IMG/VR virus record: IMGVR_UViG_3300027917_000032
Span: 23,929-87,928 of that record
Direction: 5' to 3' (one strand)
Length of the DNA stretch: 64,000 nucleotides
Origin: a virus
Both the position numbers and the translations under genes were made by a program. Below, piece after piece: positions 4,363 through 54,990 of this stretch (position 1 is its first letter; each line of letters starts with the position of its first letter). Below the pieces are notes generated by a model that saw only the letters and a list, made by a program, of their open reading frames with translations, did not search any database and was not told where the DNA came from.

Positions 4363-5130
4363 TTACTCTTCAGTGCAAGTTTCATGCCAAAGTTGGTCAT
4401 CGGTCAAAAACCCCGCTGCCCATGAAAGAGCATCGTAAGGATGCGGAAAAACACCGGCCATGTTTAATTTTGTCAACATTGTGACGATTTCCCGCCTCGA
4501 CCGCGAGGAGCGCCGCGACGCCAGCAGTGTTCGTCCTTTGACGCCGCGACTACGCGCCGCCTCAATTTCCGTAGCCAATATAGCCTGATCCTTTGGACTT
4601 GTTCGGTAGAACTTCAACAAGTCTCTCATGCCGAACACGCCCGCAGCAACTTTGTCTTGTATCTCTTGAGATAGCTCGCGGATTCGCCACCGCACCATCA
4701 CCCACAGATAAGACTTGCATAACTCTTTAGCAATATGGGTAATTGGCACATCGTCGGAGTAGTTTTTCCACAAAGCCCGCGCTTCTTCAATAAGCGTCAA
4801 GTCTTTGCGCTCTAGGTTCTCCACAAGATTCAGTAACGATGCGGCTTCTGGCGTTAGCCCTGTCAACACTGTTGCCGCGATGGTTGACCACTTTAACAGG
4901 TACTTTGCCGCCGTGTAGCGTCTATGCCCAGCGATAATACGAAACTCGTAGTCGCCCTCCCACGGCTGCACTAGAATGGGCATTTGTAACCCGTGCTGCT
5001 TCATACTAGCGGCAAGCTCAGCACATGATTGCGGAGTGACCACGCTGCGACAGTTGAAGTCGGGATCGAGATAAATAGCCGACAGCGGAAGCTCCAGCGT
5101 CTTATACTCGTCAAGTTCCGTATACTTCAT
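4363..5130 (-). CDS. ParB/Srx-family protein with HTH
   Basis: GLQMPILV, IIAGHRRY, NLVENLERKDL motifs. Confidence 0.9.
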   Translation of the reverse strand: MKYTELDEYKTLELPLSAIYLDPDFNCRSVVTPQSCAELAASMKQHGLQMPILVQPWEGDYEFRIIAGHRRYTAAKYLLKWSTIAATVLTGLTPEAASLLNLVENLERKDLTLIEEARALWKNYSDDVPITHIAKELCKSYLWVMVRWRIRELSQEIQDKVAAGVFGMRDLLKFYRTSPKDQAILATEIEAARSRGVKGRTLLASRRSSRSRREIVTMLTKLNMAGVFPHPYDALSWAAGFLTDDQLWHETCTEE

Positions 5131-6163: not shown

Positions 6164-6236
6164 AGCTGCGGGTGAGAGTCGAACTCACAACCTGCGGATT
6201 ACAAATCCGCTGCTCTGCCAGTTGAGCTACCGCAGC
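6164..6236 (-). tRNA. tRNA-Thr(TGT)
   Basis: cloverleaf: GCTGCGG/CCGCAGC acceptor, GCGGA-TTTGTAA-TCCGC anticodon arm, TTCGA T-loop; CCA not encoded. Confidence 0.95.
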
Positions 6237-6241
6237 GCCAT

Positions 6242-6403
6242 TCATCTGTTCATCTTTGCTCGGCACCATTGGCATACCTTTTTGTACGGGCCACACGGAG
6301 CCAGGTGGACACAGTACGTTCGCCAGCGGCTAAGGTACTCAACAATGCCGCCCTTGCGCCCGCATAGTTCACACTTCTGTTCACACTTCTGTTCATCTTT
6401 CAT
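6242..6403 (-). CDS. small Cys-rich protein between tRNAs
   Basis: MKDEQKCEQKCELCG...CQWC; 12-bp tandem duplication at 5' end. Confidence 0.45.
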   Translation of the reverse strand: MKDEQKCEQKCELCGRKGGIVEYLSRWRTYCVHLAPCGPYKKVCQWCRAKMNR

Positions 6404-6405
6404 AG

Positions 6406-6478
6406 CTGTGCAGGCAGGGCTCGAACCTGCGACGACCGGATTAACAGTCCGGGGCTCTACCAACTGAGCTACTGCACA
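6406..6478 (-). tRNA. tRNA-Asn(GTT)
   Basis: TGTGCAG/CTGCACA acceptor, G discriminator, CCGGA-CTGTTAA-TCCGG anticodon arm, TTCGA T-loop. Confidence 0.95.
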
Positions 6479-6483
6479 GTAAG

Positions 6484-6557
6484 TCACGCGGGGAGGGATC
6501 GAACCTCCGTCTCTCCCGTACAATCGGAAGGCTTTGCTCTCTTTAAGCTACCGCGTG
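6484..6557 (-). tRNA. tRNA-like RNA, undetermined anticodon (6-nt loop ATTGTA)
   Basis: perfect CACGCGG/CCGCGTG acceptor, GGAGG-TTCGATC-CCTCC T arm, GCTT/AAGC D stem; non-canonical anticodon and D loops. Confidence 0.75.
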
Positions 6558-6558
6558 A

Positions 6559-6690
6559 TAGGCTTGCGTGGCGGGTGGTGTTTCACTTATCGGGCGTCGC
6601 CAGTTTCAGCCAGTCAGCACCTACGCTGGCGGGGACTGTTACCCTCCCACCTACTCTACACGACCACGCTCGGTCACGACCTTCCGCCTA
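6559..6690 (-). ncRNA. candidate structured ncRNA of unknown family
   Basis: begins at the predicted TSS; end-pairing TAGGC/GCCTA and GCGTGG/CCACGC, internal hairpins; no minus-strand ORF in the track. Confidence 0.5.
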
Positions 6691-6695
6691 CCTTA

Positions 6696-6723
6696 ATCAT
6701 ATCACACTAATCCTGCTTGTCAA
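6696..6723 (-). promoter_or_regulatory. sigma70-type promoter for the RNA cluster
   Basis: TTGACA-16 nt-TATGAT with extended -10 TG. Confidence 0.75.
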
Positions 6724-7270
6724 GCAATTTCCGCCGCATCCGGTAGATTATTTGGTCATACCCGCCCACGGGCAACTCTTTGCAGTAGGCGAGAAGTAGA
6801 TTAAGCTCGTCCAGTCCGTAGTATTCCCTCCACGGGCGTTTACCGGGTGTCGCGCCTACTGTGGGTAGCTCTATAAAGGGGATGCCCATACTTCCGAAGA
6901 AGGTGTCCAGATCATGCTGCAAAGCCTCATAATGCAGATGAGTACGAGTGTAATGGTTATGCAGAAAGAGCAGGTTGTAGGGATCGCGGCAGTTCTGTAA
7001 CAACTGCTTCAGATACCCGGCAAGGTCGAGTCCTGGGAGGCTCAGCAACCACTTTGTCACGAGAATGTCGGCAGGATTGCGAACAACGCTAAAGGGATAA
7101 CATTTGCTCAGTCCATGCACGCCACGCCTTTTAAGGTCTTTAAGCGTAGAGTGATGCGAACCAACCTCGTGACTGTCCGTATGTTGAAGCAGCGCATTAC
7201 GCAAGGCACGGGACGCGGTATGCGGCTCAGCCAGAAACAGGTAACGATAACGACGATTGATTACGGCCAT
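6707..7270 (-). CDS. sulfotransferase family 2-like protein
   Basis: PSB-like loop FLAEPHTASR, 3'PB-like VVRNP, LHYEALQHD. Confidence 0.7.
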   Translation of the reverse strand: MAVINRRYRYLFLAEPHTASRALRNALLQHTDSHEVGSHHSTLKDLKRRGVHGLSKCYPFSVVRNPADILVTKWLLSLPGLDLAGYLKQLLQNCRDPYNLLFLHNHYTRTHLHYEALQHDLDTFFGSMGIPFIELPTVGATPGKRPWREYYGLDELNLLLAYCKELPVGGYDQIIYRMRRKLLDKQD

Positions 7271-7277
7271 TGTTTCC

Positions 7278-7814
7278 TCAGAACTTGTAACGACAGTGAT
7301 GAAGTTCGTCCAAGAAGTATTCCTTCACCCACATACGCTCAGGACGCTTGTAGAATATCTGATAAGGTGCGCCGTCACGAGCCGAGTCGGTTACGCGAGG
7401 TAGGTCAAGCGGAGCCATGCCCGCTTTAACCAACGCCTGATCGAAGTCAGCTTGCAACTGCTCGTATCGCATCCATGTGTTGACATGATGCGCACCAATC
7501 CACCAGAGCCGGTGGTCTTGAACGAAGTGTGGACTATTCTCAACAAAACGTGGAAGAAAGTCAATCAGCGGCGTCATCGCCCTGGCTTTCCGCTCCAGCT
7601 TGAACCACCACGAGATGAGGGCGTCGTAATGGTTCCGCACCGTTGAGCACACGGTCCAGTCGGGTCCAATCTCATAGTCAGAGTCATCGGGCGTCGTATG
7701 GTGCGAGCCGATCAGCACCGCGCCACGATGCTCTTTCAACGCTCGGGCAACCGCTTTGCTCCCCGTGCGTGGCGCAGCGATGTAACAGAACTTCCATTCA
7801 GGAATCACATACAT
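7278..7814 (-). CDS. sulfotransferase family 2-like protein (paralog)
   Basis: YIAAPRTGSK, TVRNHYDALISW, MRYEQLQADF; GGAGGAG RBS before ATG 7814. Confidence 0.75.
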   Translation of the reverse strand: MYVIPEWKFCYIAAPRTGSKAVARALKEHRGAVLIGSHHTTPDDSDYEIGPDWTVCSTVRNHYDALISWWFKLERKARAMTPLIDFLPRFVENSPHFVQDHRLWWIGAHHVNTWMRYEQLQADFDQALVKAGMAPLDLPRVTDSARDGAPYQIFYKRPERMWVKEYFLDELHHCRYKF

Positions 7815-8154
7815 CGTAAAGCTCCTCCACAACTTTCTGCATCGCGGCTCTAGCCTTTACCCACAAGCCGCGCAGCTTTCGATCCTTGATGCGTGCCGCT
7901 GGAACCAGTGAGTAAATGCTAAATCCGATGCCTTCATAAGCTACAATCTCCCGAACGTCGCCCACGTCCAGCGGACCTTTGGGCGGGTTGGGCATTTCAA
8001 TCGCAGGCATACCTCTCGGCATATCCGCCACCCACCCGCCAGGCTCAGGGACCAGCGGGTGAGCGCGTTTGTCGGTGAAGTCAAAGCCACAGTCGCACTG
8101 CTTCTTGCGGGTGCCGTGCTTGGCTTGACACTCGGGGCAGATTTTCTTAGGCAT
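7798..8154 (-). CDS. zinc-ribbon protein
   Basis: N-terminal CPEC...CDCG. Confidence 0.65.
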   Translation of the reverse strand: MPKKICPECQAKHGTRKKQCDCGFDFTDKRAHPLVPEPGGWVADMPRGMPAIEMPNPPKGPLDVGDVREIVAYEGIGFSIYSLVPAARIKDRKLRGLWVKARAAMQKVVEELYDVCDS

Positions 8155-8341
8155 CCAGCTTTCCCAACTTGCCCTCGTCTCTCAGCGTGACCAGACACAG
8201 TGCGCACACGGACAGCGACGTGACAATCTCTGTGCCACGCCCGCCATTCTTATAGCGTACCGGGCGTGTCTCAGTGACCGCACGGATTAGCTTAGTGCCG
8301 TGCGGAACTTGCTTGCCGCAGTTTTCACAGCGATAGCTCAT
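8147..8341 (-). CDS. small zinc-finger protein
   Basis: CENC...CALC. Confidence 0.65.
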   Translation of the reverse strand: MSYRCENCGKQVPHGTKLIRAVTETRPVRYKNGGRGTEIVTSLSVCALCLVTLRDEGKLGKLDA

Positions 8342-9645
8342 CCAATCTCCTCCATCATGTCAATCTTGTAACGTCGCGGACCCCGACTCTCGTAGTCGCA
8401 CCGCAACTTAATCGGTAGCCGCCAGGTGATGCCGTACCGCTCGTTGACTCCGTGGAGCAACTGAGTCGGCTCCGTACAGGCAGCGATGGAATTGTAGGCA
8501 TAGGAGTCCGTGGCGACCCACGGGCCGTTGACCAGCAACTCGCCATCCATTTCCGTGATCGACGCCGGTTTATGAAAGTGCCCGCAACAGTAGTAACGAA
8601 TCGGCGGCCCGGCCTGAGCCCTGTTAAGGGCCATGATACGTCGCTGCCGCCGCTCCAGCCCATACCAGGGAATCCCCATCTGCGAACGAACGTCGTCGCC
8701 GTGGAACACGCAGAAGCCGTGCCCTAGAATGTCGATGTTCGCGCTGAAAGCGTTTGGTATAGTGAAGTGGATATTGTCAATATCCCGGCAGTAAAGCTCG
8801 GCGTTCTTCGCCACCATGTAATCCCAGTTGTCATGGGCACCGTGGTAATCCTTCTTAAAGGATCGACGCCCGTGGTTGCCGGGCACATAGAGCACGTTTA
8901 CCGTGTCAAAGTACGGGGCCAAGTCTCGGTACATCAAGGCGTGAAGCTGCCCAATGGCGTAGCAATTCTTGAAAGCGTTTTTGAAGTACGAGCGATTGGT
9001 GTGCCCATGAATCTCACCGCTTGTATGGTCGCCATAAGCGAACACTGTGATGGCCGGAAACTGAAACTGCGGGGCCAGAGTTTGCTGCGTCCACTTTAGC
9101 ACCGTATCGACCAGATTCTCGGCACGACAAATGCTAATAGGAAAATCGTAGCACTCCAGACCGCCACACTCTTCTGGCGTAACGATCTGATCGTGGTGCC
9201 CGTCACTAATATGCAAAGCCAGGTGCTCAATTACCTCGCCCTTCTTCGGCTTCGTGTAAGGCTTCCGCGCCTTCGGCAACGCTTTGAACGGCGTGACAAT
9301 ATCTGTCATTTCCTCAACTACCGCTTGGAACAAGCCTTGCGACTTAACGGCAGTCTTGAGTTGACGACGAGCCAGATTCCGCTCATCCCGCAAGTGGAGC
9401 ACTTCACCCTCAAGCTCAAGGATACGCTCGTTGGTGGGGTCAATCTCCGCTATCTTAGCACGCTGACCCGCAGGCCGCTTGGGCGGGGCCTTTGGACCCT
9501 TTACGTCAGCATGTGCCCGGCCCGTCGCAATATCAGAAACAGTCGAGCGGCTGATCTTAAACTTCTTCGCAATCTGCGGCTGAGTCAGCTTATCTTCAGC
9601 CAGCAGTTGCTTGATCTTCTTCACCTTCGCTTTTGTCAACTTCAT
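8338..9645 (-). CDS. HTH + coiled coil + calcineurin-like metallophosphoesterase
   Basis: HTH TQPQIAKKFKISRSTVSDI; SDGH, GDH, PGNHG, HGD, GHFH motifs; GGAGGT RBS before ATG 9645. Confidence 0.85.
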   Translation of the reverse strand: MKLTKAKVKKIKQLLAEDKLTQPQIAKKFKISRSTVSDIATGRAHADVKGPKAPPKRPAGQRAKIAEIDPTNERILELEGEVLHLRDERNLARRQLKTAVKSQGLFQAVVEEMTDIVTPFKALPKARKPYTKPKKGEVIEHLALHISDGHHDQIVTPEECGGLECYDFPISICRAENLVDTVLKWTQQTLAPQFQFPAITVFAYGDHTSGEIHGHTNRSYFKNAFKNCYAIGQLHALMYRDLAPYFDTVNVLYVPGNHGRRSFKKDYHGAHDNWDYMVAKNAELYCRDIDNIHFTIPNAFSANIDILGHGFCVFHGDDVRSQMGIPWYGLERRQRRIMALNRAQAGPPIRYYCCGHFHKPASITEMDGELLVNGPWVATDSYAYNSIAACTEPTQLLHGVNERYGITWRLPIKLRCDYESRGPRRYKIDMMEEIG

Positions 9646-9658
9646 TGTGAACCTCCGT

Positions 9659-10165
9659 TCAATAGCAATCCTCCAAGCAGTGAACACAAATACCAGCGAG
9701 TTTACGAATCTCATCAAGCGAGTCGTACACCCCGGCAGTATTTGTCCAAGCGTCGATAGCACGTCGCAGATAGGTGTCAAACATAGTCGCGTAGGCAAAT
9801 GGCGTATTCTCAATGCCATCAGTGCGGCTGGACGGCAATACGTCTTGGTATGCACGCTCGCCGTTAATAGCGCAAACAACATCCGGCAGCGTCGCCCGGC
9901 CACGCACAACAATACGCTCACCCACCGGCCCCGCGCCACGCCACACTACGCCATTCTCCATCATGCAGAGACAGCAACAAGTCAGCGTGGCAAACAAATT
10001 TGACAAACTATCGTCAAAGCGACCGCTAGTTAAAGCCGCATCAATCTCTGCCAGCCCACTTTTAAGGCCAACCAGCCAATAGGACACGTTAGGTGCATCA
10101 AGGCCGGAACCGTTATCGTCCTGCGTGATCTTTTCAATGACTTTGTAGATTTCGTTACGGGTCAT
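9659..10165 (-). CDS. putative all-alpha (MazG-like) NTP pyrophosphatase, internally duplicated
   Basis: ERAYQD...DEIRKLAGICVHCLE, with a weaker N-terminal copy ending LTCCCLCMME. Confidence 0.45.
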   Translation of the reverse strand: MTRNEIYKVIEKITQDDNGSGLDAPNVSYWLVGLKSGLAEIDAALTSGRFDDSLSNLFATLTCCCLCMMENGVVWRGAGPVGERIVVRGRATLPDVVCAINGERAYQDVLPSSRTDGIENTPFAYATMFDTYLRRAIDAWTNTAGVYDSLDEIRKLAGICVHCLEDCY

Positions 10166-10491
10166 TCTTGCTCCAAACTGATGAGGTTATTGTCAACGAG
10201 TACATTAGCGACCGCCGTAGCCAGCGTTGTGATAAATGGCTCCTCCATCTTCTCCGACCTGAAAGCCGCGCCAAGCATGGGCGTTCGGTTAAAAATGGCG
10301 TGCAGTACCTCATGGATCGCCGTGTCCAGAACGCCCAATGGTGTTTGCTTTATCGAGACGCGGATAAAGTCGTCTCCGCAAAGTCCGTTCATTTGGCTAT
10401 CCGGGTCGCTCAAATCAACGTCTCTTGGATCAGAGACGAATGTCAAGGCGTAGGGATAACCTTGAACCATTAACTTAGTAGGATACTTCAT
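10162..10491 (-). CDS. HExxH zincin-like protein
   Basis: TAIHEVLHAIF...EE. Confidence 0.7.
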   Translation of the reverse strand: MKYPTKLMVQGYPYALTFVSDPRDVDLSDPDSQMNGLCGDDFIRVSIKQTPLGVLDTAIHEVLHAIFNRTPMLGAAFRSEKMEEPFITTLATAVANVLVDNNLISLEQE

Positions 10492-11549
10492 TTTACCTCC
10501 GCATAGTAGTCAGGGCTAACGGCTTTGAGAATGAGGCGACCACCTAGCACGGGGCTGAACGTCTCCTCCAGCGGCGTAATCACAATCCCCTCGCGGCCCT
10601 TGAAGTCGCAACAAATATTCTCGGGACTGGCGAGCGTGGTTGGGCCACTAATGTACTGGTCAATAAGCTCAGGTCGGAAGGGGCCTTCATAGAGCACCGG
10701 CACAGTCGCAATCTCAAACAGGTCACAGTATGTCTTTATATCCTCCCAGTCAAGGTAATCACCGTCAACTGAAATATCAAAGACCCGGTGCCCCGTAAGA
10801 GGCAGTCCATAATCCATCGACTGAACACGGCTGCCGTAGATTTCACCAAACACAATGACATTCAGCACACCACGACTAATGAACTCCATCATCTGAATCA
10901 TGTTGTCAGTCATCGGGAGCCAATACGGAGAGAAGTCGTGATTTGCGTTCCGCATTTTCACACGGACGTTGTGTGAACCCGCCATACCTACGCCATCAAT
11001 CACACCCACCCGCGAGTTTGAACCGTGAATCTTCTCGGTAATCCGAACCGGCGTGCCCGTTGGCAGCGCAGAGGCGTAGCGATAGTAGTGCTGGATATTG
11101 GTATACTTATGGAACGCCGGATGGTCGGGCTCCGCGTCCGAGCTTCGCATCTTCGGCGGCGGCTGATACTTCTCTGCGCTGAACGCTTCTGATACGTCGT
11201 CACCAACCTTCACGTCGCCCAACGTCACACCCAGCCGCTCGTCAAGAGGCAGGCCGAAACCAAATGACGGCACGCCGCGTAGGCGGATCGCCCCGACTCG
11301 GCACTGAGACTTCTCCGAATCGCCGGGGTAGACCGCGTGCTTCAAGTAATTCTTCACGCCCAACGCATCGGCCACGGACTCTGGGATCATAATGTCAGGC
11401 GGAAAGTACACGCAAGACTGGCCGACATGAAAGCAGTCAAGAGGAGCTACGAGTTGAGTATCAAGCACCTTGACAATCTCCAGACGGTCGGCGTTGGGGT
11501 GCTGCGTCACAGACTTGACAGCAACGATTTCGACAGGGGTTTCACTCAT
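10488..11549 (-). CDS. RNA ligase, DRB0094/Rnl2 family, with N-terminal OB fold
   Basis: HPNADRL N-domain; motif I EKIHGSN, FGEIYG, VFDI, EGIVI, LKAVS. Confidence 0.9.
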   Translation of the reverse strand: MSETPVEIVAVKSVTQHPNADRLEIVKVLDTQLVAPLDCFHVGQSCVYFPPDIMIPESVADALGVKNYLKHAVYPGDSEKSQCRVGAIRLRGVPSFGFGLPLDERLGVTLGDVKVGDDVSEAFSAEKYQPPPKMRSSDAEPDHPAFHKYTNIQHYYRYASALPTGTPVRITEKIHGSNSRVGVIDGVGMAGSHNVRVKMRNANHDFSPYWLPMTDNMIQMMEFISRGVLNVIVFGEIYGSRVQSMDYGLPLTGHRVFDISVDGDYLDWEDIKTYCDLFEIATVPVLYEGPFRPELIDQYISGPTTLASPENICCDFKGREGIVITPLEETFSPVLGGRLILKAVSPDYYAEVK

Positions 11550-11784
11550 TTGCAAACTCCGATGTTTGGTCAAGTAGTCTGAGGGTTATGCCGTTCCGGT
11601 CATGCTTAGCGAGTAGACCCGCAAGCCTCGCGCACTCTTGGAGTGTCTCGGTCAGTTCTTTGACGCGATCCCGCGCATCGTCGCGCTCTATTTCCAGCGT
11701 GTCACGCTCACTCTGAGCATAGAACAACTCGTCATTGAGCAGGCTAACTTCGTTCTGGTATGAGTCGCATTGTTCACAAATCAC
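11542..11784 (-). CDS. coiled-coil protein
   Basis: overlapping ORF with heptad pattern. Confidence 0.65.
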   Translation of the reverse strand: MICEQCDSYQNEVSLLNDELFYAQSERDTLEIERDDARDRVKELTETLQECARLAGLLAKHDRNGITLRLLDQTSEFANE

Positions 11785-13634
11785 ACTAGCTCCCTCGCAA
11801 AGATAGGTTTCGTTCGGTCAATGGTTTCGTGGTTCTCGATGATGTATTCCATCGCCGCCTCAAAGTAATCCGGCTCGTCCGTGTCGAAGATCGCTTTGCG
11901 AATATCGACCGCGAGTAGGCGGGCGGTAACGTCCATCCTGTACGCTGCGTCATTTGTCATGCGGGTGGTAATGTCGAGAAATTCCGACCCGGTGTGAGCA
12001 ATCAACTCTTCCAGCCCTACCCTACGCAGCAAGGCCGATGCCGCCAAGTTGTAAAAGCGGTCGCCCTCCAAGGTGACAACGGGTTTTCCCAGATATAGGG
12101 CTTCTACTACCGTGTTGTACCCGCCGAACGGCCACGAGTTCAATGCAAAATCGGCATATTCCGCTTCTTCCATGTATTCGAGATATTCCTTATCTGCGTG
12201 CAGCGTTGCAAAATCGCCCACCTGATGTGCGATTTCGTTAGCAAATGGTATGAAAGCGTTGTACCGATGAACGCCCCGGCTGGCGAAGATCGCAAAGTGA
12301 ATGTCAGGACAACGACGGTGAAGCTCCTGCAACGTCCGTATCATCGTGTAGTTGTACTTGTCCGGTCCCCAGACGCAGTTTACCACGACCTTATCCGACT
12401 TCTGCTTAGGATACTTCCGCTCAAACGTGGGCCATACTGGCGTGCAGCCGAGCCCTGGCAGAACAATGGGCGTCTCGGAGTAGTTCTTGTCCAGGTCGTC
12501 AATCTTCTCTGTCTCCTCGCCCACAACAAAGTAGTCTATCTCACTGCCGAAGGTACTGACCGGGTGGCCGTAGCTCGTCACCTGAATCGGAGCGAGGCGC
12601 AGGTTGCTGAGCCACACCGATTCGTCTGTCATCCCAATGTCGGGGTAGTAGATCAACTGAAAATCGTTTTCCGTGACCAGACTCAATGGCAACTCGTGTA
12701 CGCCCTTCGCGTCCAGTGTAAACTGCATCTTATGAATCGTATCAAAGTACACCTTCGCGTGTTCGGGGACAGCGTAGGGGCCGGTGTGCAGCAGTGTCAG
12801 CTTGTAGTTTGGTCGAAACCGATCTAGGTACGGGAAGCAACTCTTATAGACTGCCGTGTGCGGCGACCACTTCGACGTGACAATAGCGATGCTGTGCCGA
12901 TCCGGTTTGTTGACAATGTTAATCTCTTGCTTCTGCAAAAACTCACGGCACCCGGCGTTGACTAATTCTTTCACACGCCGGTCAGTCCTATCCTCCCCCG
13001 CAAAGTACGTTGAGTAGAAATAAGGAAGCGTCACCCGCTGATCGAATGGGCGGTAGCGATGATCCATTTCTTGATAGTGTAGCCGCATGTTAGCTTGATA
13101 ATGCGGCAGGACGCAGCCAATGGTGGCAAGCGGATAGGTAAAATGCCAGAGACTAGCCAGGCGAGGATCATGGTCGAAGAGAACCTTCGCATCAATCTTT
13201 GCCATGTTCTTCACGCCGTACAAGAAGAGAATCTTAAAGTAGTTGTCACGCTGGCGTATGACCTGATTGAGAATATCGTCTGTGTCCTGATAACTGGACA
13301 TGGCAACCATATTTGCAAACAAGTGCGCCCGACTAATCATCATCGGAATGTACTCGTTTGGAAACTGAAAGTCAGGGTCACTAAGTACCGCCATAATGGC
13401 CGATACAATCTGGTCGATGCGATGCAGCCCTTCCTGGTTAATTGTCCGAAAGTTGCATTGTTGAAAATAGTACATCACTTCAAGGATGCTTTTGCAAATC
13501 TCCCCATACTGCCCTTTGTAGAGAAGTGTGTAGAGGCGCTTTCGGTCGGTCACTGGTAGATCGGTCTTATTCGGCTGTATCTCAAACGGCGGGCGTTGCT
13601 TCCGTTGCCGCTTCTTCTTACGACGTTTCGGCAT
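11781..13634 (-). CDS. GT41 glycosyltransferase, HMW1C/NGT-like
   Basis: YYPDIGM, RLAPIQVTSYGHPVST, WPFGGYNTVVEALYLGKPVVTL; N-domain AIMAVLSDP...SSYQDTDDIL resembles HMW1C; no TPRs. Confidence 0.85.
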   Translation of the reverse strand: MPKRRKKKRQRKQRPPFEIQPNKTDLPVTDRKRLYTLLYKGQYGEICKSILEVMYYFQQCNFRTINQEGLHRIDQIVSAIMAVLSDPDFQFPNEYIPMMISRAHLFANMVAMSSYQDTDDILNQVIRQRDNYFKILFLYGVKNMAKIDAKVLFDHDPRLASLWHFTYPLATIGCVLPHYQANMRLHYQEMDHRYRPFDQRVTLPYFYSTYFAGEDRTDRRVKELVNAGCREFLQKQEINIVNKPDRHSIAIVTSKWSPHTAVYKSCFPYLDRFRPNYKLTLLHTGPYAVPEHAKVYFDTIHKMQFTLDAKGVHELPLSLVTENDFQLIYYPDIGMTDESVWLSNLRLAPIQVTSYGHPVSTFGSEIDYFVVGEETEKIDDLDKNYSETPIVLPGLGCTPVWPTFERKYPKQKSDKVVVNCVWGPDKYNYTMIRTLQELHRRCPDIHFAIFASRGVHRYNAFIPFANEIAHQVGDFATLHADKEYLEYMEEAEYADFALNSWPFGGYNTVVEALYLGKPVVTLEGDRFYNLAASALLRRVGLEELIAHTGSEFLDITTRMTNDAAYRMDVTARLLAVDIRKAIFDTDEPDYFEAAMEYIIENHETIDRTKPIFARELV

Positions 13635-14799
13635 GGTAATCATCCTCTGTGTATTCTTTGATGCCAAAGGGTTCAACAACATATACCGTTTTCACGCAGG
13701 GGTAGCACTGTTGAATCTCCATCCAAATGTCGGCCGCGCGCCAGCGAGTCGTGATAAGTACCGTCTCGGCTGGGTTCTCGTACAGAGACTCGGCGTGTTC
13801 AATCAATTGCCCCGTGCCGGGAACGTACCGGCCCGCCTTGCGTCGGTCGGAGTCAATAACCCGCCCCTTGGTAATGTGGAACGCATTAAGGAACGCCGCT
13901 CCCTTGCCCGTGCCGCCCCAGAACACCATGTCAGTGTCGATCAACTCCATTAGGAAGTTGACCAAACCACTCGTCCCGTGGTAATCCCAACCCTGGGGGT
14001 AGCCAGGGTAGGCTCGCGGATTTGGCACGCCGGTCCAGATGACTACTTCATCATTGTAGGTGCGGTAGCACTCACGAGTCAACCACCCGCAAGACTCAAA
14101 CATCGTCCGCATACTGCGGAAGGTAAAGTTGCTCACATGCTCGTACAGGAAATCGCCCACGCGGGTTGTCGCCAGAGCCCTGTCAATGCACGGCACTTCC
14201 GCCACGAACACTGGACGAATGTTATTCTGCACGCAGGCCCAGGCCAATTCCGTGATAAACTCCCGTGGTTGCTCCATGTGCTCCAGTACATGACGACACA
14301 CCAGCATGTCAGGCTTGTGCTTGCCCAAGTCCCGCCCAGGGATGAAGTAGTCGGCATACGTCTTTAAGCGTAGCAACTTGCAGTCCCGATGCTCTGGTCC
14401 CGGCTCATAGGCGATAGCTTCAACATCGCACTTCAGCATACAGGTAAGTTTGAGCGTGTGGAGAAACGAACCGTCGCCCGCTCCAATGTCCACCACCGTC
14501 AGATCGTTGTGGATATAGTTGTCCCGCAGCTTCAAAGCAAGCTCGTCAAGGTGACGCTGCCAGCCCCGCCCATTGTTGAACATGAGGTTGGAATCTTCTT
14601 CATACGGGATTTGAGCCACGTCGAAGTCTTTATTGAATACATGCCCGCACTTGACGCAAACGTGGAAGTTCATCGGATACCGCAACGCCCGCTCTGCATC
14701 CTCGCGTGTGCGGGGTAGGTTCAGGGCGGCGAGCGGTTGCGGGCCAGGTTGGTAGAGCGGGTGCGTCAAGTGACACCCGCAGGCAAGACAGTTACTCAT
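13618..14799 (-). CDS. SAM-dependent NDP-sugar C-methyltransferase-like protein
   Basis: Zn site CLAC...CVKCGH, SAM motif VDIGAGDG, RHVLEH, LYEHVSNF, C-terminal FWGGTGKG...GRYVPG. Confidence 0.85.
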   Translation of the reverse strand: MSNCLACGCHLTHPLYQPGPQPLAALNLPRTREDAERALRYPMNFHVCVKCGHVFNKDFDVAQIPYEEDSNLMFNNGRGWQRHLDELALKLRDNYIHNDLTVVDIGAGDGSFLHTLKLTCMLKCDVEAIAYEPGPEHRDCKLLRLKTYADYFIPGRDLGKHKPDMLVCRHVLEHMEQPREFITELAWACVQNNIRPVFVAEVPCIDRALATTRVGDFLYEHVSNFTFRSMRTMFESCGWLTRECYRTYNDEVVIWTGVPNPRAYPGYPQGWDYHGTSGLVNFLMELIDTDMVFWGGTGKGAAFLNAFHITKGRVIDSDRRKAGRYVPGTGQLIEHAESLYENPAETVLITTRWRAADIWMEIQQCYPCVKTVYVVEPFGIKEYTEDDYHAETS

Positions 14800-14907
14800 G
14801 GCCGGAAATCCTTATCTACCACGCACAAACGCGGTATGTAATGAGGGTTAATGTTCAAAGTCTTGCAGACAACATACCACTGCCCTGCATACAGAACATG
14901 GTCGCCT

Positions 14908-15519
14908 TTACGAAGCATTAGCATGTTCGTGTCGTTCCTCCAAAGGTCGGTGCATTAAGCGGGCATAAACCTCATCAATGCTGATAGGTCGCCATCGACC
15001 AATCAACCGATGAATGTTGTCGATACCAACGTCCATCGCTCGCCGGTTGGGCCAGAGGCTATCCAGCTTCTCTTCAAATTTACCGTGACTATGACCGTAC
15101 AGATGGATGCTGCCCTTTTGCATACCACGCCACGACAGCATGGGCTCGTGGCTCATGCGGATACGGATGCGGTCGGTATTACCATGTGCAGTAGCTACGG
15201 TGAAACGCCGGTAAAGCAAGTCGTTCAGGGAGGAGCCGTGCCGACGCAGACTACTCGCATCGTGGTTGCCACGGATAAAGTGTAGTTCGCGCACTTTCAG
15301 CCGCGCCCGGTAGTGACCTGCCCGGCTTGCTTGCCAGCAGAAGTCTCCCAAGTGGTACAAAGTGTCGTTAGGTTGTACCCAATAGTTCACGGCACCGATC
15401 AACATGGCGTCCATGTCGGCCAAGTCGCGGGTTTCTTGGAAACGCGCGTCTTGGTGAACACGGACGCCAGCGTGGCCGAAGTGTAGGTCAGCGGTAAACC
15501 AGATCATGTATTCCTCCAC
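14908..15519 (-). CDS. calcineurin-like metallophosphoesterase
   Basis: ADLHFGH, LGDF, GNHD, SHEP, GHSH. Confidence 0.9.
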   Translation of the reverse strand: MEEYMIWFTADLHFGHAGVRVHQDARFQETRDLADMDAMLIGAVNYWVQPNDTLYHLGDFCWQASRAGHYRARLKVRELHFIRGNHDASSLRRHGSSLNDLLYRRFTVATAHGNTDRIRIRMSHEPMLSWRGMQKGSIHLYGHSHGKFEEKLDSLWPNRRAMDVGIDNIHRLIGRWRPISIDEVYARLMHRPLEERHEHANAS

Positions 15520-15522
15520 CCC

Positions 15523-15551
15523 AGTCTACCATACAAAAGGGCGGTTGTCAA
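15523..15551 (-). promoter_or_regulatory. sigma70-type promoter of the accessory operon
   Basis: TTGACA-17 nt-TAGACT with extended -10 TG. Confidence 0.8.
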
Positions 15552-15582
15552 ATAAATAAGGGAGGGGTGCGACACCCCTCCC
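15550..15582 (-). terminator. intrinsic terminator
   Basis: GGGAGGGGTG-TCG-CACCCCTCCC followed by TTATTTATTT. Confidence 0.8.
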
Positions 15583-20349: not shown

Positions 20350-21078
20350 TTAACGCGCCCGACGCTTCGCCGCGGCGGTTTCAGCTTCGGTTACGTTCTG
20401 CACACCGTTATCCTTAACTTCGATGAACTTGCGCATCTCCTCACGCAACACGTCCAGCGACGGGGTTTTGGTGAAAGGTTCCGAGCATTTGTTGACAACC
20501 GGAACATGCCAACCCCAGGAGCCACGCTTAGCGTAGCGAACAGTCAATGTGCAGGGCAGGGGGCCATGAGCGTCAATACCTTGCTTTGCCGCCGTGGCCT
20601 CACTGACAGGCAGGAAGTTGATAAGATCGCCAGAAACGGCGCGAGACGACTTCGTGCCCATGAAGAACTCAAAACAGCGTCCCGTCGAACGCTCCACTAC
20701 CAGGAATGACGGCCCCCACATGCAGCCACTATCCTGTTCACCCGAACGCGCCTTAATATCCTGAAACTCAGGCGTGCTCATGTCATACACCGCGACAACA
20801 GCTTCGCGGTCACTCATGTCCAGAGCTTTTGCCCGAACAGCCAGGGGGAGAATGTCAATTGACGAGCCAAGATCGTCAATCTCTTCGCCGCCAGGGAGGG
20901 GGATGCCATAGTGACCGGGCTTAATCTTCCCGGTATCCACGTACTTCCCTTTGGTAATCAGTTGCAGGCGCTGAAGGTAATCAACACCCTTGGACAACTC
21001 ATCCATCTGCTCCGCTGTAACAAGCTCAGTCGTCGGAAGGGCAGAAGCATCGAACGGGATCAAATCAGTACTCATCAC
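20350..21078 (-). CDS. putative ssDNA-binding protein
   Basis: replication-module position, LQRLQL..KPG N-terminus, beta-rich OB-like pattern. Confidence 0.5.
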   Translation of the reverse strand: MMSTDLIPFDASALPTTELVTAEQMDELSKGVDYLQRLQLITKGKYVDTGKIKPGHYGIPLPGGEEIDDLGSSIDILPLAVRAKALDMSDREAVVAVYDMSTPEFQDIKARSGEQDSGCMWGPSFLVVERSTGRCFEFFMGTKSSRAVSGDLINFLPVSEATAAKQGIDAHGPLPCTLTVRYAKRGSWGWHVPVVNKCSEPFTKTPSLDVLREEMRKFIEVKDNGVQNVTEAETAAAKRRAR

Positions 21079-22013
21079 TCAGTCTCCAGATTAAGGTTTC
21101 CGCCAATTTCTCTTAACTCTCGAAGCTGTTGGCGTTCCAGCTTCCTACGCTCCATTTCATGCTCACGTTGCTGTAGACGTGCCTTGAACATTTCTTCTTG
21201 CCGTACCAGGCTTTTAGGGTCTAGGTGCAAAATCCATTCCAAACACGCCATCCAACCATCAGAAGGCGTCTCGGCTTTTCTCAAACGAAGGATCAAACCT
21301 TGCACCTGCGGGTTTTTGTATTCGCTACAAATCTGGGTGAACTTTCGCAGGTAGGGGATTGGGTCTGGTCTGTTTATGTTGTGTTCATCAATGAACTTTC
21401 TCTGTGCTGCCTCACGGTACTCCCGCATCACCTGATGGAACATTGTCTTAAATTCTGCACACGTCAGCGTGACCGCGCTCTCGATGTAAGCATCTTGCAA
21501 GCAATAAGGTGTCTTGGCTAACAGGCAGGCGGATTGAAGCGGGATTTCGCCCCGCCGCAACATTTCTTTGTAAGCAGGCCGCAGATCATTTAAGTCTAAA
21601 ATCTGCCGCACCCATGAGGGGCTTTTACGAATCAGCCGTGATAACTGCGGAACAGTCATGCCAGGATTGTTGTGCAAAATCCGTTCCAAACGAACAGCAA
21701 ATTCTACCGGTCTTGTTTCAGGTCGGATTCCATTAGCCTGAAGCTGTATGACTAGCATCTCGTCATCGGTCATCTCTTGTATTTGACACGGGATTGTCTC
21801 CATGCGCAACTGCTTACAGCAGTGATAACGCCAATTACCCTCAACAACCTCGTACTCAGCGGGGCCGATAAACCGCACGAGAATGGGCTGCAACACGCCT
21901 TTGTCACGAATCGAGTCTAACAACTCATTGTACTCAACGCTCTCTGTGCGTACCGGACGGAGTAAACACCGGGGGCTGCGTATTCGATCCAAGTGTATCT
22001 CCGCTAGTCGCAT
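21075..22013 (-). CDS. ParB/Spo0J-like protein
   Basis: GVLQPILVR, VVEGNWRY, HTH VPQLSRLIRKSPSWV; GGAGG RBS before ATG 22013. Confidence 0.88.
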   Translation of the reverse strand: MRLAEIHLDRIRSPRCLLRPVRTESVEYNELLDSIRDKGVLQPILVRFIGPAEYEVVEGNWRYHCCKQLRMETIPCQIQEMTDDEMLVIQLQANGIRPETRPVEFAVRLERILHNNPGMTVPQLSRLIRKSPSWVRQILDLNDLRPAYKEMLRRGEIPLQSACLLAKTPYCLQDAYIESAVTLTCAEFKTMFHQVMREYREAAQRKFIDEHNINRPDPIPYLRKFTQICSEYKNPQVQGLILRLRKAETPSDGWMACLEWILHLDPKSLVRQEEMFKARLQQREHEMERRKLERQQLRELREIGGNLNLETE

Positions 22014-22019
22014 CCTCGT

Positions 22020-22047
22020 TCCTCCATAGTATATGGTAGCTACGTTT
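22020..22047 (-). promoter_or_regulatory. conserved 28-bp operon-head motif, copy 1
   Basis: AAACGTAGCTACCATATACTATGGAGGA. Confidence 0.75.
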
Positions 22048-22124
22048 CCGAGTTCTTGGCGCGGTAAAACAGATTTTTCTGGAAAAAGTTTAGCCCCTCC
22101 CTTGAAAGTGGCAATACTGAACAT

Positions 22125-22560
22125 TTGACTATCCACACTATCAGGGGTTTTCGACGCGGCAGATAGGATAAAAACTACCACCTTTGCGGGGTTCATCCAC
22201 TCGCCATCCTACCTAATCTGAGGGGAAGGATAGAAATGACCATCACAGAAATCCCGTATTTTCTAGGCCGAATGCGCGCACGACGCGGCAGATAGGATGA
22301 AAATGAGTGGATGGCGCAGAAAACTCTCCCTACAGATATTTTCTTTCTTCTTGTCTCTACAGACCTTTTTTTATTCTCTATCCACTCAATTCTATCCACT
22401 GGTGTTATCCGACTACTAGGAGAAAACCATCATAGCTAGTGTTTTGACGTTTTGACGCGGCGGCGTTTCGAGTGGATGAACCCCTCAGACTAGGTAGGAT
22501 AAAATGCCGTTTGAGTGGATGAAACCCCTGAAAGTAGTAGTTTCCATCCTACGCGGTGTC
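22125..22560. repeat. iteron-rich non-coding element A (putative origin)
   Basis: many AGTGGAT(A/G) and TAGGAT(A/G) repeats in both orientations around an AT-rich core; inverted homolog at ~63290-63740. Confidence 0.7.
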
Positions 22561-25426: not shown

Positions 25427-25603
25427 ATGTACCGGATTATGATTTGCCAAAGCGTATGTGCTAGTGGCTCGGTAATCATCGCTCGAACGCTGGCAACATT
25501 ATACGAAAATGAAGTTCCTGATGATATTGAAACAATCGTTGAGGAACTTGGCGGCGACTACTACGACATTCAAAACGAGGAGGATGACGATGGCGAAAAT
25601 TGA
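25427..25603 (+). CDS. small acidic protein (not in ORF track)
   Basis: GAGGAG RBS; MYRIMICQ...DDGEN. Confidence 0.55.
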   Translation: MYRIMICQSVCASGSVIIARTLATLYENEVPDDIETIVEELGGDYYDIQNEEDDDGEN

Positions 25604-26354
25604 CTACAGCGTGGGGGATATTAACAGCACAAAGAAGGGTTCAGGTGCCCGAGCCAACAGTGGTAAGATTTCCTTTGCCGTGACCCCACTCCCGTTGCTG
25701 GCGGGCTGCGCCCGCGTTTGGATGAGTGGCCTGCTCAAGTACGCACCGTGGAATTGGGCCAAGGGAATGAAGTGGAGTGTACCCTTTGACTGCCTCTGTC
25801 GTCACCTGTTCAAGTGGTGGTATCTGGGAGAAGATATTGACCCCGAATCCGGTGAGCATCACCTTGACCTTGTGTTCTGCAACCTCTTCATGCTCAAGCA
25901 CTACACTAAGACCTTTACAGAGGGCGACGACCGCCCGCCTGAGTACGCCGATTTCGGCCCGTGGTTGGATGACTTCAACACGCCTTTTGATGAGGCGGGG
26001 TTCTTGGAGCGGAACCCGGATATTGCCCGCATGATTGAAGAACGCAAGGCTCAGGAAGAAGTGGAAGCAGCGGAAGCAGCGGAAGCAGCGGAAGCAGCGG
26101 AAGCAGCGGAAGCAGCGGAAGGTGTCACCTGGCACGAAGGAGCAAAAGACTCCGCCGTGCGCAAGCACTACGGGATCATTTACCGTGCGGAGTCAAGAAA
26201 GAAGATAGCCGCTGGGGAGAAAAAGTTCACGCAAGACGAGATTACGGCCATGTGGGCCGCAGCCCGTGAGCGCGCCCTTGCCGAGGCGACGCAAAAGGAT
26301 AGTTGCTCTTGTCCCGACAATGTTGATTGCCGTGGTTGTCGAGGAGGTTTCTAA
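25590..26354 (+). CDS. dATP/dGTP diphosphohydrolase domain (DUF5664) protein
   Basis: GLLKYAPWNWAKGM...RHL...GEDIDPESGEHHL..CNL; GAGGAGG RBS. Confidence 0.85.
   Translation: MAKIDYSVGDINSTKKGSGARANSGKISFAVTPLPLLAGCARVWMSGLLKYAPWNWAKGMKWSVPFDCLCRHLFKWWYLGEDIDPESGEHHLDLVFCNLFMLKHYTKTFTEGDDRPPEYADFGPWLDDFNTPFDEAGFLERNPDIARMIEERKAQEEVEAAEAAEAAEAAEAAEAAEGVTWHEGAKDSAVRKHYGIIYRAESRKKIAAGEKKFTQDEITAMWAAARERALAEATQKDSCSCPDNVDCRGCRGGF
26063..26116 (+). repeat. 9-bp tandem repeat x6 (EAA)
   Basis: (GGAAGCAGC)6. Confidence 0.95.
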
Positions 26355-52939: not shown

Positions 52940-52949
52940 GTTACTCTCC

Positions 52950-53138: not shown

Positions 53139-53147
53139 GATACCACC

Positions 53148-54987: not shown

Positions 54988-54990
54988 GTG

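Follow-up and report, generated by a model that had tools for sequence, protein, structure and literature searches.

A phage-borne C-methyltransferase and HMW1C/NGT-fold glycosyltransferase pair related to planctomycete flagellar-locus enzymes: a candidate protein-glycosylation cassette

Organization of the operon

The window analyzed here is a stretch of 64,000 nucleotides, corresponding to bases 23929-87928 of an 87.9-kb IMG/VR virus record. Genes for tape measure, major head, portal and TerL proteins in the window identify the source as a phage. This phage is uncultured and originates from marine sediment. Twelve open reading frames (ORFs) on the minus strand run from 15519 to 6707, with overlaps of 4 to 32 nt or short gaps of at most 108 nt, in agreement with the tightly coupled operon described in the initial annotation. 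The insulating terminator and near-consensus sigma70 promoter placed at its head (15582-15523, minus strand) were likewise found. An intrinsic-terminator-like hairpin (15560-15582, minus strand; 10 bp, 8 GC, with a T-run) ends the upstream gene and insulates the operon, and is directly followed by the sigma-70-like promoter TTGACA-17-TAGACT with a TG extension (15523-15551, minus strand; 10/12 matches). As a class, promoter-like sites show no excess (8 versus 6.4 +/- 2.9 in shuffles). A second such site, TTGACA-16-TATGAT (6696-6723, minus strand; 11/12 matches), lies at the operon end and faces a downstream cluster (6164-6557, minus strand) of tRNA-Thr(TGT), tRNA-Asn(GTT) and one odd tRNA-like gene.

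All operon genes are given in order of transcription. The first encodes a metallophosphoesterase (14908-15519; 203 aa; PF12850 at 1e-6, phrog_547 at 6e-37), whose probable start is ATG 15507 rather than GTG 15519, because the -10 element lies only 4 nt from the GTG. It is followed by an NDP-hexose 3-C-methyltransferase homologue (13618-14799; 393 aa) with Zn-Cys4, SAM and C-terminal domains, and by a GT41 glycosyltransferase of HMW1C/NGT fold (11781-13634; 617 aa) with a polybasic N-terminus and no TPR. Next are a coiled-coil-like ORF of 80 aa without a homologue in relatives (11542-11784), an RNA ligase with OB-fold and RNA_ligase domains (10488-11573; PF09414 at 3e-19, phrog_968 at 5e-39) and two short ORFs (9659-10491; 109 and 168 aa), the first matching phrog_1233 and the second no family. 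An HTH plus Mre11/SbcD-like exonuclease (8338-9645; 435 aa; phrog_284 at 2e-30) serves as the anchor gene conserved across the phage clade (80 viral loci, identity 56-74%). Two short ORFs rich in Cys and resembling zinc fingers (7798-8341; 64 and 118 aa), the larger kept in close relatives, precede the sulfotransferase-like ST184 (7278-7814; 178 aa from an inner ATG; motifs PRTGS, SHH and RNxxD) and its paralog ST187 (6707-7270; PHTAS, SHH and RNPAD). The methyltransferase and glycosyltransferase genes sit in a replication/repair module with an early-type promoter upstream, away from the late structural genes.

The glycosyltransferase

The annotation of this enzyme as a TPR-less GT41 with an HMW1C-like N-domain was borne out: PF13844 was matched at 1e-11 and no TPR match was found, with the HMW1C_N match (3e-4) below the Pfam cut-off. 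Profile and structure comparisons show it to be HMW1C/NGT-like, not OGT/SPINDLY-like. The family profile spans the whole length of AaNGT and ApNGT (E 6e-57 to 1e-54), whereas the match to OGT and SPY is confined to the C-terminal lobes (1e-13 to 9e-19). In Foldseek, the AF2 model (pLDDT 91.6) reached TM 0.73-0.76 against NGT structures versus about 0.5 against OGT.

The nucleotide-sugar-binding residues are intact. Equivalents of the NGT residues K441, Y501, N521, D525, G370-H371 and Y222, whose roles have been described (PMC10466321), are invariant or conservatively kept across 30 sequences, the D525 equivalent, a ribose-binding acidic residue, being E or D. The acceptor side differs. D215 of the DVYM motif and R177 make NGTs read N-X-S/T with Ser/Thr at +2, and mutants at these positions lose activity or sequon stringency (PMC10466321, PMC10507012). 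In 30/30 family members, D215 is replaced by P, S, V, L or C and R177 by A, P, G, T, L or S. Asn modification by the classic N-X-S/T rule, as initially proposed, is therefore not borne out, and acceptor choice would follow some other rule because the sequon-reading residues are absent.

The C-methyltransferase

The methyltransferase gene (stop at 13618) overlaps the glycosyltransferase gene (start at 13634) by 17 nt. Besides Pfam matches to Methyltransf_13, _23 and _14, its family profile matches 4rv9, a D-mycarose 3-C-methyltransferase (2e-26), and TcaB9 (1e-19), both at full length, confirming the overlapping NDP-sugar C-methyltransferase as a homologue. Four Cys (Zn-Cys4), GxGxG and a Y-E-H motif are invariant, and the E-H motif aligns with E224/H225 of TcaB9. 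The C-terminal domain (PF08484) binds the nucleotide-sugar in TcaB9-type enzymes. Judged from its sequence, the protein is genuinely homologous to NDP-hexose 3-C-methyltransferases.

This homology bears on the order of reactions. A scheme in which the methyltransferase acts on the product (protein-linked sugar or protein), with the glycosyltransferase using an ordinary host UDP-hexose, would suit the absence of keto-sugar pathway genes from the phage and from the surroundings of the pair in annotated cellular flagellar loci, the E/D retained at the D525 equivalent, as in UDP-sugar users, and the frequent fusion of flagellin-island GT41 enzymes to generic SAM methyltransferase domains (PMC4875605). 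However, TylC3/TcaB9-type homology over all three domains, including the PF08484 C-terminal domain, and alignment of the E-H motif to E224/H225 argue against it, making the scheme quite unlikely.

Sulfotransferases, fibre and sugar supply

Profile, structure and Atlas matches agree with the earlier view of ST184 and ST187 (184- and 187-aa ORFs; 29% identical, E 2e-16) as sulfotransferase-like paralogs, and no direct Pfam match was found for either. About 40 solved sulfotransferases were matched by the profile (best 1.7e-6), the top 22 matches of a VIA structural search are all sulfotransferases (Z 6.1-7.9), and the nearest ESM Atlas clusters comprise viral members of Sulfotransfer_2, 189-215 aa long (scores 0.96). 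Both are predicted to be minimal Sulfotransfer_2-type enzymes. They are PAPS-type and a separate, optional module: sulfotransferases occur in 5/37 records bearing the methyltransferase-glycosyltransferase pair, also in pair-less phages, and are missing from six of the ten complete pair-bearing genomes. The glycan of the cassette may or may not be their substrate.

The count of 11 N-X-S/T sequons in the fibre ORF (54991-56799) was reproduced, but 9.8 +/- 2.6 are expected from composition (z 0.47), so that enrichment is lacking. Even the closest pair-bearing relatives contain nothing homologous to the fibre cassette (52.6-58.5 kb); the fibre is unique to this phage, and the enzyme pair is kept in relatives with other fibres. 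The GT2 previously assigned to the virion arm amounts to a PF00535 signal of 12 bits (E 0.008, cut-off 23.3) at 53493-53624, inside an ORF (53148-53933) for which no Pfam or PDB match was found. The reported lack of sugar-nucleotide synthesis genes extends beyond the window: no epimerase/dehydratase, nucleotidyltransferase or APS-kinase family was found across the 87.9-kb record. As the phage encodes neither a 4-keto sugar nucleotide pathway nor a ketoreductase, the proposed donor would depend wholly on the host.

These results weigh on the single pathway originally suggested, in which an HMW1C-type N-glycosyltransferase glucosylates N-X-S/T Asn of the tail fibre or host-surface proteins, and the virion-arm GT2 extends the glycan before C-methylation and sulfation to give a shielding N-glycan. 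Whole-length HMW1C/NGT homology and fold, retention of the Asn-pocket residues Y222 and H371, the 11 fibre sequons and the operon shared by the sulfotransferase genes and the pair would all fit, as would a close relative (G038) that lacks both the pair and ST184 but keeps the genes between. Nevertheless, the one-pathway model of a methylated, sulfated N-glycan on the fibre fails as stated because the sequon readers are replaced, sequons are not in excess, the GT2 is sub-threshold and the sulfotransferases are independent of the pair; the absence of the fibre cassette from the closest pair-bearing relatives also stands against it. The whole scheme is highly improbable.

Distribution in phages and cellular relatives

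Of the expected co-occurrence, the part concerning the pair was upheld and that concerning the sulfotransferases, which assort independently, was not. In 37/37 viral loci the methyltransferase gene immediately precedes that of the glycosyltransferase, and the pair is never split in 38 phage contigs; it is also intact in 34 exonuclease-anchored loci, with no lone gene of either kind. Helicase and exonuclease are present but the pair is absent in 45 related phage loci. In the exonuclease tree, pair-bearers form one starred set (99), and two changes are needed, one being the loss in G038 (trees were built by quick methods). Absence from the 45 loci and loss in a close relative thus mark the pair as an accessory cassette, separate from the surrounding replication machinery.

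Of the nine closest cellular glycosyltransferase homologues (36-41% identity), eight come from planctomycete loci that also encode FliD, FliS and giant flagellins of 913-1065 aa and, in several cases, the methyltransferase partner (34-46% identical to the phage protein). In the glycosyltransferase tree, enzymes of viruses and of flagellar loci fall into one starred clade (97), and a polybasic N-terminal tail is common to enzymes of the subclade of this phage and those of flagellar loci. Sequence comparison thus points to common ancestry of the cassette and the Planctomycetota pair beside flagellin, FliD and FliS, and the host phylum is likely Planctomycetota. No flagellin or FliD homologue was found in the phage, and no keto-sugar pathway genes were found beside the pair in the annotated cellular flagellar loci.

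What does the cassette modify?

The surroundings of the pair could suggest a nucleic acid substrate: tRNA, or phage DNA for anti-restriction hypermodification. The cassette lies between helicase and exonuclease genes, just upstream of tRNA genes, and its operon also encodes an RNA ligase and a phosphoesterase; the glycosyltransferase N-terminus is polybasic, and the phage has unusual nucleotide-metabolism genes (dATP/dGTP diphosphohydrolase N-domain, deaminase, deoxyribosyltransferase-like genes and DeoC). However, no thymidylate-synthase/hydroxymethylase family gene was found in 21 records, 10 of them at least 90% complete, leaving DNA glycosylation without its usual hydroxyl acceptor. Moreover, all solved relatives have protein substrates, the nearest cellular relatives lie in flagellar loci and carry the polybasic tail too, and the pair is absent from close relatives that share the replication genes. 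A nucleic acid substrate is accordingly very unlikely.

Glycosylation of host flagellin, or of another surface or secreted host protein, during infection would mirror the cellular relatives, and could change the receptor (excluding competitors, protecting progeny from debris) or alter host motility. It is favored by the flagellin, FliD and FliS genes flanking the closest cellular homologues, their single clade with the viral enzymes, the shared polybasic tail, the early-type promoter and the gain and loss typical of host-interaction genes. On the other hand, a search of 11 pair-bearing records yielded no integrase, which makes lysogenic conversion unlikely; a cytoplasmic enzyme cannot reach filaments already assembled, hosts with their own pair offer no gain, and the phage gives no sign of using flagella. 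As a full explanation this is unlikely.

The reading that we favor, with modest confidence, is a mobile two-gene cassette of C-methyltransferase and HMW1C/NGT-fold GT41 that modifies protein and has common ancestry with the planctomycete flagellar-locus pair. The cassette probably puts a modified sugar onto protein, since its closest cellular relatives adjoin Planctomycetes flagellin genes. In the cytoplasm of the infected cell, a host-made nucleotide-activated keto-sugar would be methylated with SAM by the methyltransferase, and the glycosyltransferase would transfer the methylated sugar (or a related hexose) from the nucleotide to protein. The acceptor may be Asn, or Ser/Thr as in flagellins, without use of the N-X-S/T rule. 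Given a protein target, a phage structural protein, which would mean virion decoration, is a tentative candidate, and host flagellin or another host protein an only slightly less likely one. Against the favored cassette model, the HMW1C/NGT fold alone is compatible with a non-protein acceptor, the pair is located in the replication/repair module behind an early-type promoter, its donor would come wholly from the host, and the phage has neither flagellin nor FliD. Modifying flagellin also brings no obvious gain to a lytic phage, and 11 pair-bearing records contained no integrase.

Comparison with known systems

The HMW1C-like N-glycosyltransferases of CAZy GT41 (H. influenzae HMW1C, ApNGT 3q3e/8j30 and AaNGT 8p0o/8p0q) resemble the phage enzyme in length (about 620 aa) and in having an all-alpha N-domain and two Rossmann-like lobes without TPR, but identity is only 18-20%, and the phage family lacks the DVYM-motif Asp and R177 that read the +2 Ser/Thr. 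Unlike HMW1C, the phage-borne gene has a C-methyltransferase partner and no two-partner-secretion adhesin nearby, and its cellular relatives belong to flagellar rather than adhesin loci. The methyltransferase homologue shares three domains, a Cys4 zinc site, the SAM motif and the E-H catalytic pair with the NDP-hexose 3-C-methyltransferases 4rv9, TcaB9 (3ndi) and KijD1 (5t64). These work in antibiotic deoxysugar pathways with dehydratases, aminotransferases and reductases, whereas none of the latter occur in the phage or beside the flagellar-locus pair. ST184 and ST187 share with the Sulfotransfer_2 family (PF03567; heparan sulfate 2-O-sulfotransferase 3f5f) the PRT[GA]S 5'-phosphosulfate loop, the RNPxD 3'-phosphate motif, the His pair and the fold, at only about 180 aa versus 250-350 aa for characterized members.

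Mycobacteriophage-encoded cytoplasmic glycosyltransferases decorate the phages' own capsid and tail proteins, a precedent for virion decoration. They belong to other GT families, are located by structural genes, and involve neither an HMW1C-fold enzyme nor a C-methyltransferase. Passages of PMC11256854 and PMC12363180 cite this virion glycosylation by mycobacteriophage enzymes.

The combination of GT41 and methyltransferase as one module is familiar from flagellin glycosylation islands, described in Enterobacteriaceae (PMC4875605). The enterobacterial enzymes are described as SPINDLY-type (COG3914) with fused generic methyltransferase domains (PMC4875605), whereas the phage pair comprises an HMW1C-fold enzyme and a separate TylC3-type partner. 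The phage differs from both these islands and the planctomycete loci in having no flagellar genes; the planctomycete pair, a putative glycosylation module, forms one clade with the viral enzymes.

Organization of the operon and its source phage

The family assignments proposed for this operon in the initial annotation hold true for fold and homology; the specific pathway built on them, an N-X-S/T-linked glycan on the fibre extended by a GT2 enzyme, C-methylated and sulfated, is not supported. The window spans bases 23929-87928 of an 87.9-kb IMG/VR record (completeness estimate, 86%), which encodes a tape measure, a major head protein, a portal and a large terminase, together with a family-A-type polymerase, helicase, primase, DNA ligase and nucleotide-metabolism genes, a set indicative of a siphovirus-type phage. 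Searches of 50,697 GenBank phages with megablast and tblastn revealed no DNA or protein resemblance to it. The stretch was detected only in marine sediment metagenome runs, with no RNA run among them. The phage genome contains two distinct genes for proteins with a ParB N-terminal domain (4363-5130 and 21075-22196, -).

The operon contains 12 minus-strand ORFs with small overlaps or gaps, in the order metallophosphoesterase, C-methyltransferase homologue, GT41 glycosyltransferase, 80-aa ORF, RNA ligase, two small ORFs, HTH + Mre11-like exonuclease, two Cys-rich ORFs and two paralogs of ~180 aa. It is headed by a promoter-like site with a TG extension (TTGACA-17-TAGACT, 15551-15523, -), directly preceded by a strong hairpin with a T-run (15582-15560, -). 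Thus, the terminator, promoter, tight gene packing and listed genes are all present where they had been annotated. A second promoter-like site, with 11 of 12 matches and better than the first, was found at the far end of the operon (6723-6696, -). It precedes genes for tRNA-Thr(TGT) and tRNA-Asn(GTT) and a third, tRNA-like gene whose anticodon loop is irregular, all at the very end of the operon (6164-6723 with the promoter-like site, -). Promoter-like sites show no overall excess (eight in the sequence versus 6.4 in shuffles), so that these two are distinguished only by score and position. The metallophosphoesterase (14908-15519, -) and the RNA ligase (10488-11573, -) bracket the methyltransferase-glycosyltransferase pair, and abut each other in G038, a close relative without the pair (helicase 73-76%, exonuclease 70%); they resemble an RNA (tRNA) repair pair between which the cassette was inserted.

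A glycosyltransferase of the HMW1C fold with altered acceptor-reading residues

The start of the glycosyltransferase gene (11781-13634, -), taken from the 617-aa database protein P0001, overlaps the methyltransferase stop by 17 nt. Its assignment as a TPR-less GT41 enzyme, HMW1C-like rather than OGT- or SPINDLY-like, was borne out by HMM and structure comparison. In a single-sequence search, NGT/HMW1C structures were matched with E values of 1e-22 to 3e-24, versus 1e-7 for OGT. A profile of 30 relatives aligned over positions 68-587 to chain 54-612 of AaNGT and ApNGT (E 6e-57 to 1e-54), a match that takes in the all-alpha N-domain, whereas SPY and OGT were matched in the C-terminal lobes only. 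The AlphaFold (AF2) model (pLDDT 91.6) was compared using Foldseek, giving TM values of 0.73-0.76 over 620-645 columns with NGT structures and ~0.5 with OGT. No TPR was matched by Pfam, and the TPR-less three-domain architecture of HMW1C-like NGTs, an all-alpha domain plus GT-B lobes, is present.

In ApNGT, UDP is held by K441, Y501, N521, D525 and G370-H371, and the acceptor Asn is flanked by Y222 and H371 (PMC10466321). Across the 30 sequences, the UDP-site equivalents K426, Y487, N507, G356 and H357 are invariant, with E or D at position 511, as are Y210 and H357 of the acceptor-Asn pocket; H495 aligns to an Asp. The nucleotide-sugar-binding residues on which the GT41 reading depends are thus kept. 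The residues that read the +2 Ser/Thr were identified by mutagenesis as D215, of the DVYM motif, and R177 (PMC10466321, PMC10507012). In the HMM alignment, near an indel, the D215-equivalent position 203 is occupied by P (14), S (6), V (4), L (3) or C (3) and never by Asp (Leu in the window protein), and the R177-equivalent position 170 by A (12), P (8), G (6), T (2), L (1) or S (1) and never by Arg (Ala in the window protein). With both residues replaced in 30 of 30 family members, the proposed N-X-S/T glycosylation by an HMW1C-type enzyme is not supported. D198 and R200 are conserved and are candidate residues of the peptide groove. Since the sequon readers are absent while the fold and donor site of NGT are kept, the enzyme appears, from this alignment next to an indel, not to be classifiable as an N-X-S/T glycosyltransferase, and a new acceptor specificity should follow. 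The enzyme also carries a polybasic N-terminal tail (MPKRRKKKRQRKQR..., 13550-13634), which the phage's own subclade shares but the other viral subclade lacks; such a tail, in different wording, is found in planctomycete flagellar-locus enzymes as well.

The partner methyltransferase

The overlapping gene (13618-14799, -) had been annotated as an NDP-sugar C-methyltransferase, and its homology to this family is clear. Pfam scores are 25.1 bits for PF08421 (below its cut-off of 31.3), 29.8 for PF13489 and 23.5 for PF08484 (at cut-off). Pfam and profile matches together give an N-terminal Cys4 zinc domain, a class I SAM domain and a C-terminal PF08484 domain, the layout of NDP-hexose C-methyltransferases. 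The single sequence matched nothing in the PDB; a profile of 20 phage orthologues matched, over its full length, the D-mycarose 3-C-methyltransferase 4rv9 (2e-26) and TcaB9 (1e-19), and also KijD1. The zinc cysteines C4, C7, C48 and C51 and the SAM glycines G106 and G108 are invariant among the phage orthologues. The invariant Y219-E220-H221 was aligned with DEH of TcaB9 and HEH of 4rv9; E224/H225 of TcaB9 is the catalytic Glu-His pair. For the NDP-4-keto-deoxysugar pathway, no PF01370 or PF00483 match was obtained in the 87.9-kb record, and no such gene occurs among the annotated ORFs. The reported absence of sugar-nucleotide synthesis genes from the window holds for the whole record, which contains no PAPS synthesis genes either.

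Two small sulfotransferase-like paralogs

The paralogs ST184 (7278-7814, -) and ST187 (6707-7270, -), the latter being the last gene of the operon, had no Pfam match even at an E value of 10. Against the PDB, the single ST184 sequence found nothing and a six-sequence sulfotransferase profile gave noise only. A 25-member profile matched ~40 solved sulfotransferases, the best in the PDB being SULT4A1 (1.7e-6), and PF03567 was matched by six of the 25 members (best, 2.2e-7). P21, S25, H44 and H45 of the 5'-PSB loop and catalytic His region are nearly invariant, and R66, N67 and D70 of the 3'-PB motif are invariant; this RNxxD block was aligned to the RNPKD 3'-phosphate motif of SULT. The AF2 model (pLDDT 91.6) gave weak Foldseek scores (E 0.04 or worse). 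In an exhaustive structural search (VIA), the top 22 matches were all sulfotransferases, with Z scores of 6.1-7.9 over 148-175 aligned residues, middling by the tool's own caveat for Z below 8, and P-loop kinases ranked behind at 5.5 or less. In the ESM Atlas, the paralog falls among viral Sulfotransfer_2 clusters of 189-215 aa, with a structure TM of 0.83-0.84 to PF03567 clusters. Profile, motifs, VIA ranking and Atlas clusters therefore agree with the annotation of two such paralogs, and the label sulfotransferase-like is justified, ~180 aa being unusually small for sulfotransferases. No functional study of phage-encoded sulfotransferases came up in our literature searches.

Distribution among related phages

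A search with the glycosyltransferase alignment recovered 37 viral loci, in all of which the methyltransferase gene immediately precedes the glycosyltransferase gene, the two being flanked by the helicase and the exonuclease (8338-9645, -) of the clade. A single-protein helicase search gave one distant locus only; the exonuclease alignment was used as the anchor. Among the 80 loci so obtained, 34 have both genes, 45 have neither gene, with the helicase (50-57%) and exonuclease (53-60%) at about the same similarity, and none has one gene of the pair without the other. The pair-bearers form one well-supported set on the exonuclease tree, and two changes account for the pattern, namely a gain or a loss at the base, plus a loss in G038. 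Therefore, the pair is a dispensable cassette, albeit one long retained at a fixed site, and is not part of the replication machinery.

This distribution bears on whether the cassette modifies DNA rather than protein. We assign this a low probability: close relatives have the same replication genes without the cassette, and a gene of the thymidylate-synthase/hydroxymethylase family is absent from 21 records, 10 of them near-complete, although three features would suit DNA as a target: the location within the replication module, a basic tail on the glycosyltransferase and the odd nucleotide-metabolism genes. Regarding the last, a protein beside the primase (25509-26354, +) contains the dATP/dGTP diphosphohydrolase N-terminal domain (PF18909, 1e-20), found in the MazZ-type enzyme of 2-aminoadenine phages, and deaminase, DeoC and deoxyribosyltransferase-like genes lie upstream of the window. 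Together these genes hint at unusual nucleotide handling.

No integrase was found in 11 pair-bearing records, which argues against lysogenic conversion as the purpose of the cassette. The pair-less relatives G040, G041 and G042 (records of loci L173, L190 and L194) include an IMG/VR 'provirus' and have tyrosine integrase matches.

Sulfotransferase genes are present in five of the 37 pair-bearing records (4/10 among those at least 90% complete) and also in pair-less phages, with four changes on the exonuclease tree. In G038, the pair and ST184 are both missing through separate deletions with the intervening genes kept, which is one hint of coupling; the correlation of the sulfotransferases with the pair comprises only two independent contrasts. 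The expectation that these genes travel together in relatives thus holds for the methyltransferase and glycosyltransferase, which occur together in every locus that has either, but not for the sulfotransferases, which vary separately.

The fibre as proposed substrate

The fibre (54991-56799) contains 11 sequons, in line with the 9.8 +/- 2.6 expected from its composition. In 16 tests, a mild excess was seen only in a 250-aa tail-tube-like protein (40295-41047; 7 versus 3.3, p 0.027 uncorrected); this was rejected as evidence because three of its sites are kept in G038, which lacks the pair. The GT2 placed in the virion arm (53148-53933) scored 12 bits for PF00535, below the cut-off of 23.3 (E 0.008, 46/168 positions), and this ORF gave no Pfam or PDB match. 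At 52622-58517 lies a block that encodes a 568-aa protein as well as the 602-aa fibre and the weak GT2-like ORF; none of the three closest relatives has a homologue of it, although its flanks are shared, so that it represents a swapped host-range cassette. The fibre block thus belongs to this phage alone, in contrast to the enzyme pair, which its relatives also carry. The sequon count, unique fibre block, sub-threshold GT2 and separate sulfotransferases all speak against a single pathway for a methylated, sulfated N-glycan on the fibre.

Cellular relatives in flagellar loci

In bacterial assemblies, 80 loci without the phage genes encode relatives with identities of 28-41%, chiefly in Planctomycetota, Cyanobacteria and Verrucomicrobiota; their neighbours were clustered from non-overlapping longest ORFs. 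Flagellar loci of Pirellulales, Thermoguttaceae and Planctomycetaceae hold eight of the nine closest cellular relatives. Either a giant flagellin of 913-1065 aa lies just upstream of the glycosyltransferase, or methyltransferase, glycosyltransferase, FliD and FliS stand in a row, and several loci have a methyltransferase partner 34-46% identical to that of the window. Flagellin/FliD/FliS adjacency is present in the cellular loci L043-L050, and no flagellar homologue was found in the window or the 37 viral loci. In a 106-sequence tree (FastTree, midpoint root), one starred clade (97) unites 38 viral rows, six flagellar-locus rows and L042 apart from other cellular groups, supporting common descent with the flagellar-locus enzymes. 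In enterobacterial flagellin glycosylation islands, GT41 joined to methyltransferase domains is a known feature (PMC4875605). The flagellar-locus relatives, the clade, the tail and this precedent point to Planctomycetota as probable hosts and make a flagellin-glycosylation module the likely source or sibling of the phage cassette; transfer may have run in either direction.

Several further features of these loci were observed. The giant flagellins adjoining the glycosyltransferase (L043 4997-8194, L045, L047, L048 5300-8044, L049 and L050) have Flagellin_N/Flagellin_C ends and a huge middle. A radical SAM/SPASM gene lies between flagellin and glycosyltransferase in L048. An apparent methyltransferase-glycosyltransferase fusion in L043 was rejected, being an over-long ORF in another frame. 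L042 (9635-14283) has two tandem glycosyltransferase genes after the methyltransferase, the second very divergent and with a TPR-like start. In cyanobacterial L058, L061, L072 and L118, the homologue is encoded shortly downstream of DNA polymerase I; as Cyanobacteria have no flagella, the wider family must have other targets.

Interpretation and comparison with known systems

On balance, we lean towards an accessory cassette, of flagellar-island descent, for protein glycosylation in the cytoplasm, with a sugar that is probably C-methylated, a non-sequon rule and the sulfotransferases as a separate optional module. The glycosyltransferase would attach this sugar to a protein in the cytoplasm, not by sequon. 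It is improbable that, in this subclade, all three enzyme types work together to place a sulfated branched-chain sugar on virion proteins. For this, a host keto-sugar nucleotide would be C-methylated, the HMW1C-fold enzyme would transfer the sugar to virion proteins at a non-sequon site, and the minimal sulfotransferases would O-sulfate the product. The phage particle would then bear a coat of sulfated, branched-chain monosaccharide, which might imitate the sulfated polysaccharides that surround marine Planctomycetes; we know of no virus on which this type of glycan has been reported.

For the favoured accessory cassette, the constant pairing with a methyltransferase predicts that the protein-bound sugar has a C-methyl branch, an unusual feature if so. 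To our knowledge, HMW1C-type enzymes, which serve as glyco-engineering tools, have been described from no more than a few Proteobacteria, whose adhesins they glucosylate at N-X-S/T. The present enzyme belongs to a large, deep HMW1C-fold family with the donor site kept and the acceptor-reading motif altered, having 434 database relatives in phages, Planctomycetes, Cyanobacteria and others; neither phage HMW1C/GT41 enzymes nor such a phage system turned up in our literature searches. For the cellular enzymes, the planctomycete giant flagellins provide a concrete candidate substrate, and the data suggest that phages took over a module for decorating flagellin; this would open a new way of glycosylating phage or host proteins. 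Unlike TylC3/TcaB9-type enzymes, which are embedded in an NDP-4-keto-deoxysugar pathway, the phage methyltransferase is not. Nor does the phage carry a gene for a secreted adhesin substrate of the HMW1A/EtpA type; the cellular relatives of the glycosyltransferase adjoin flagellin and FliD instead.
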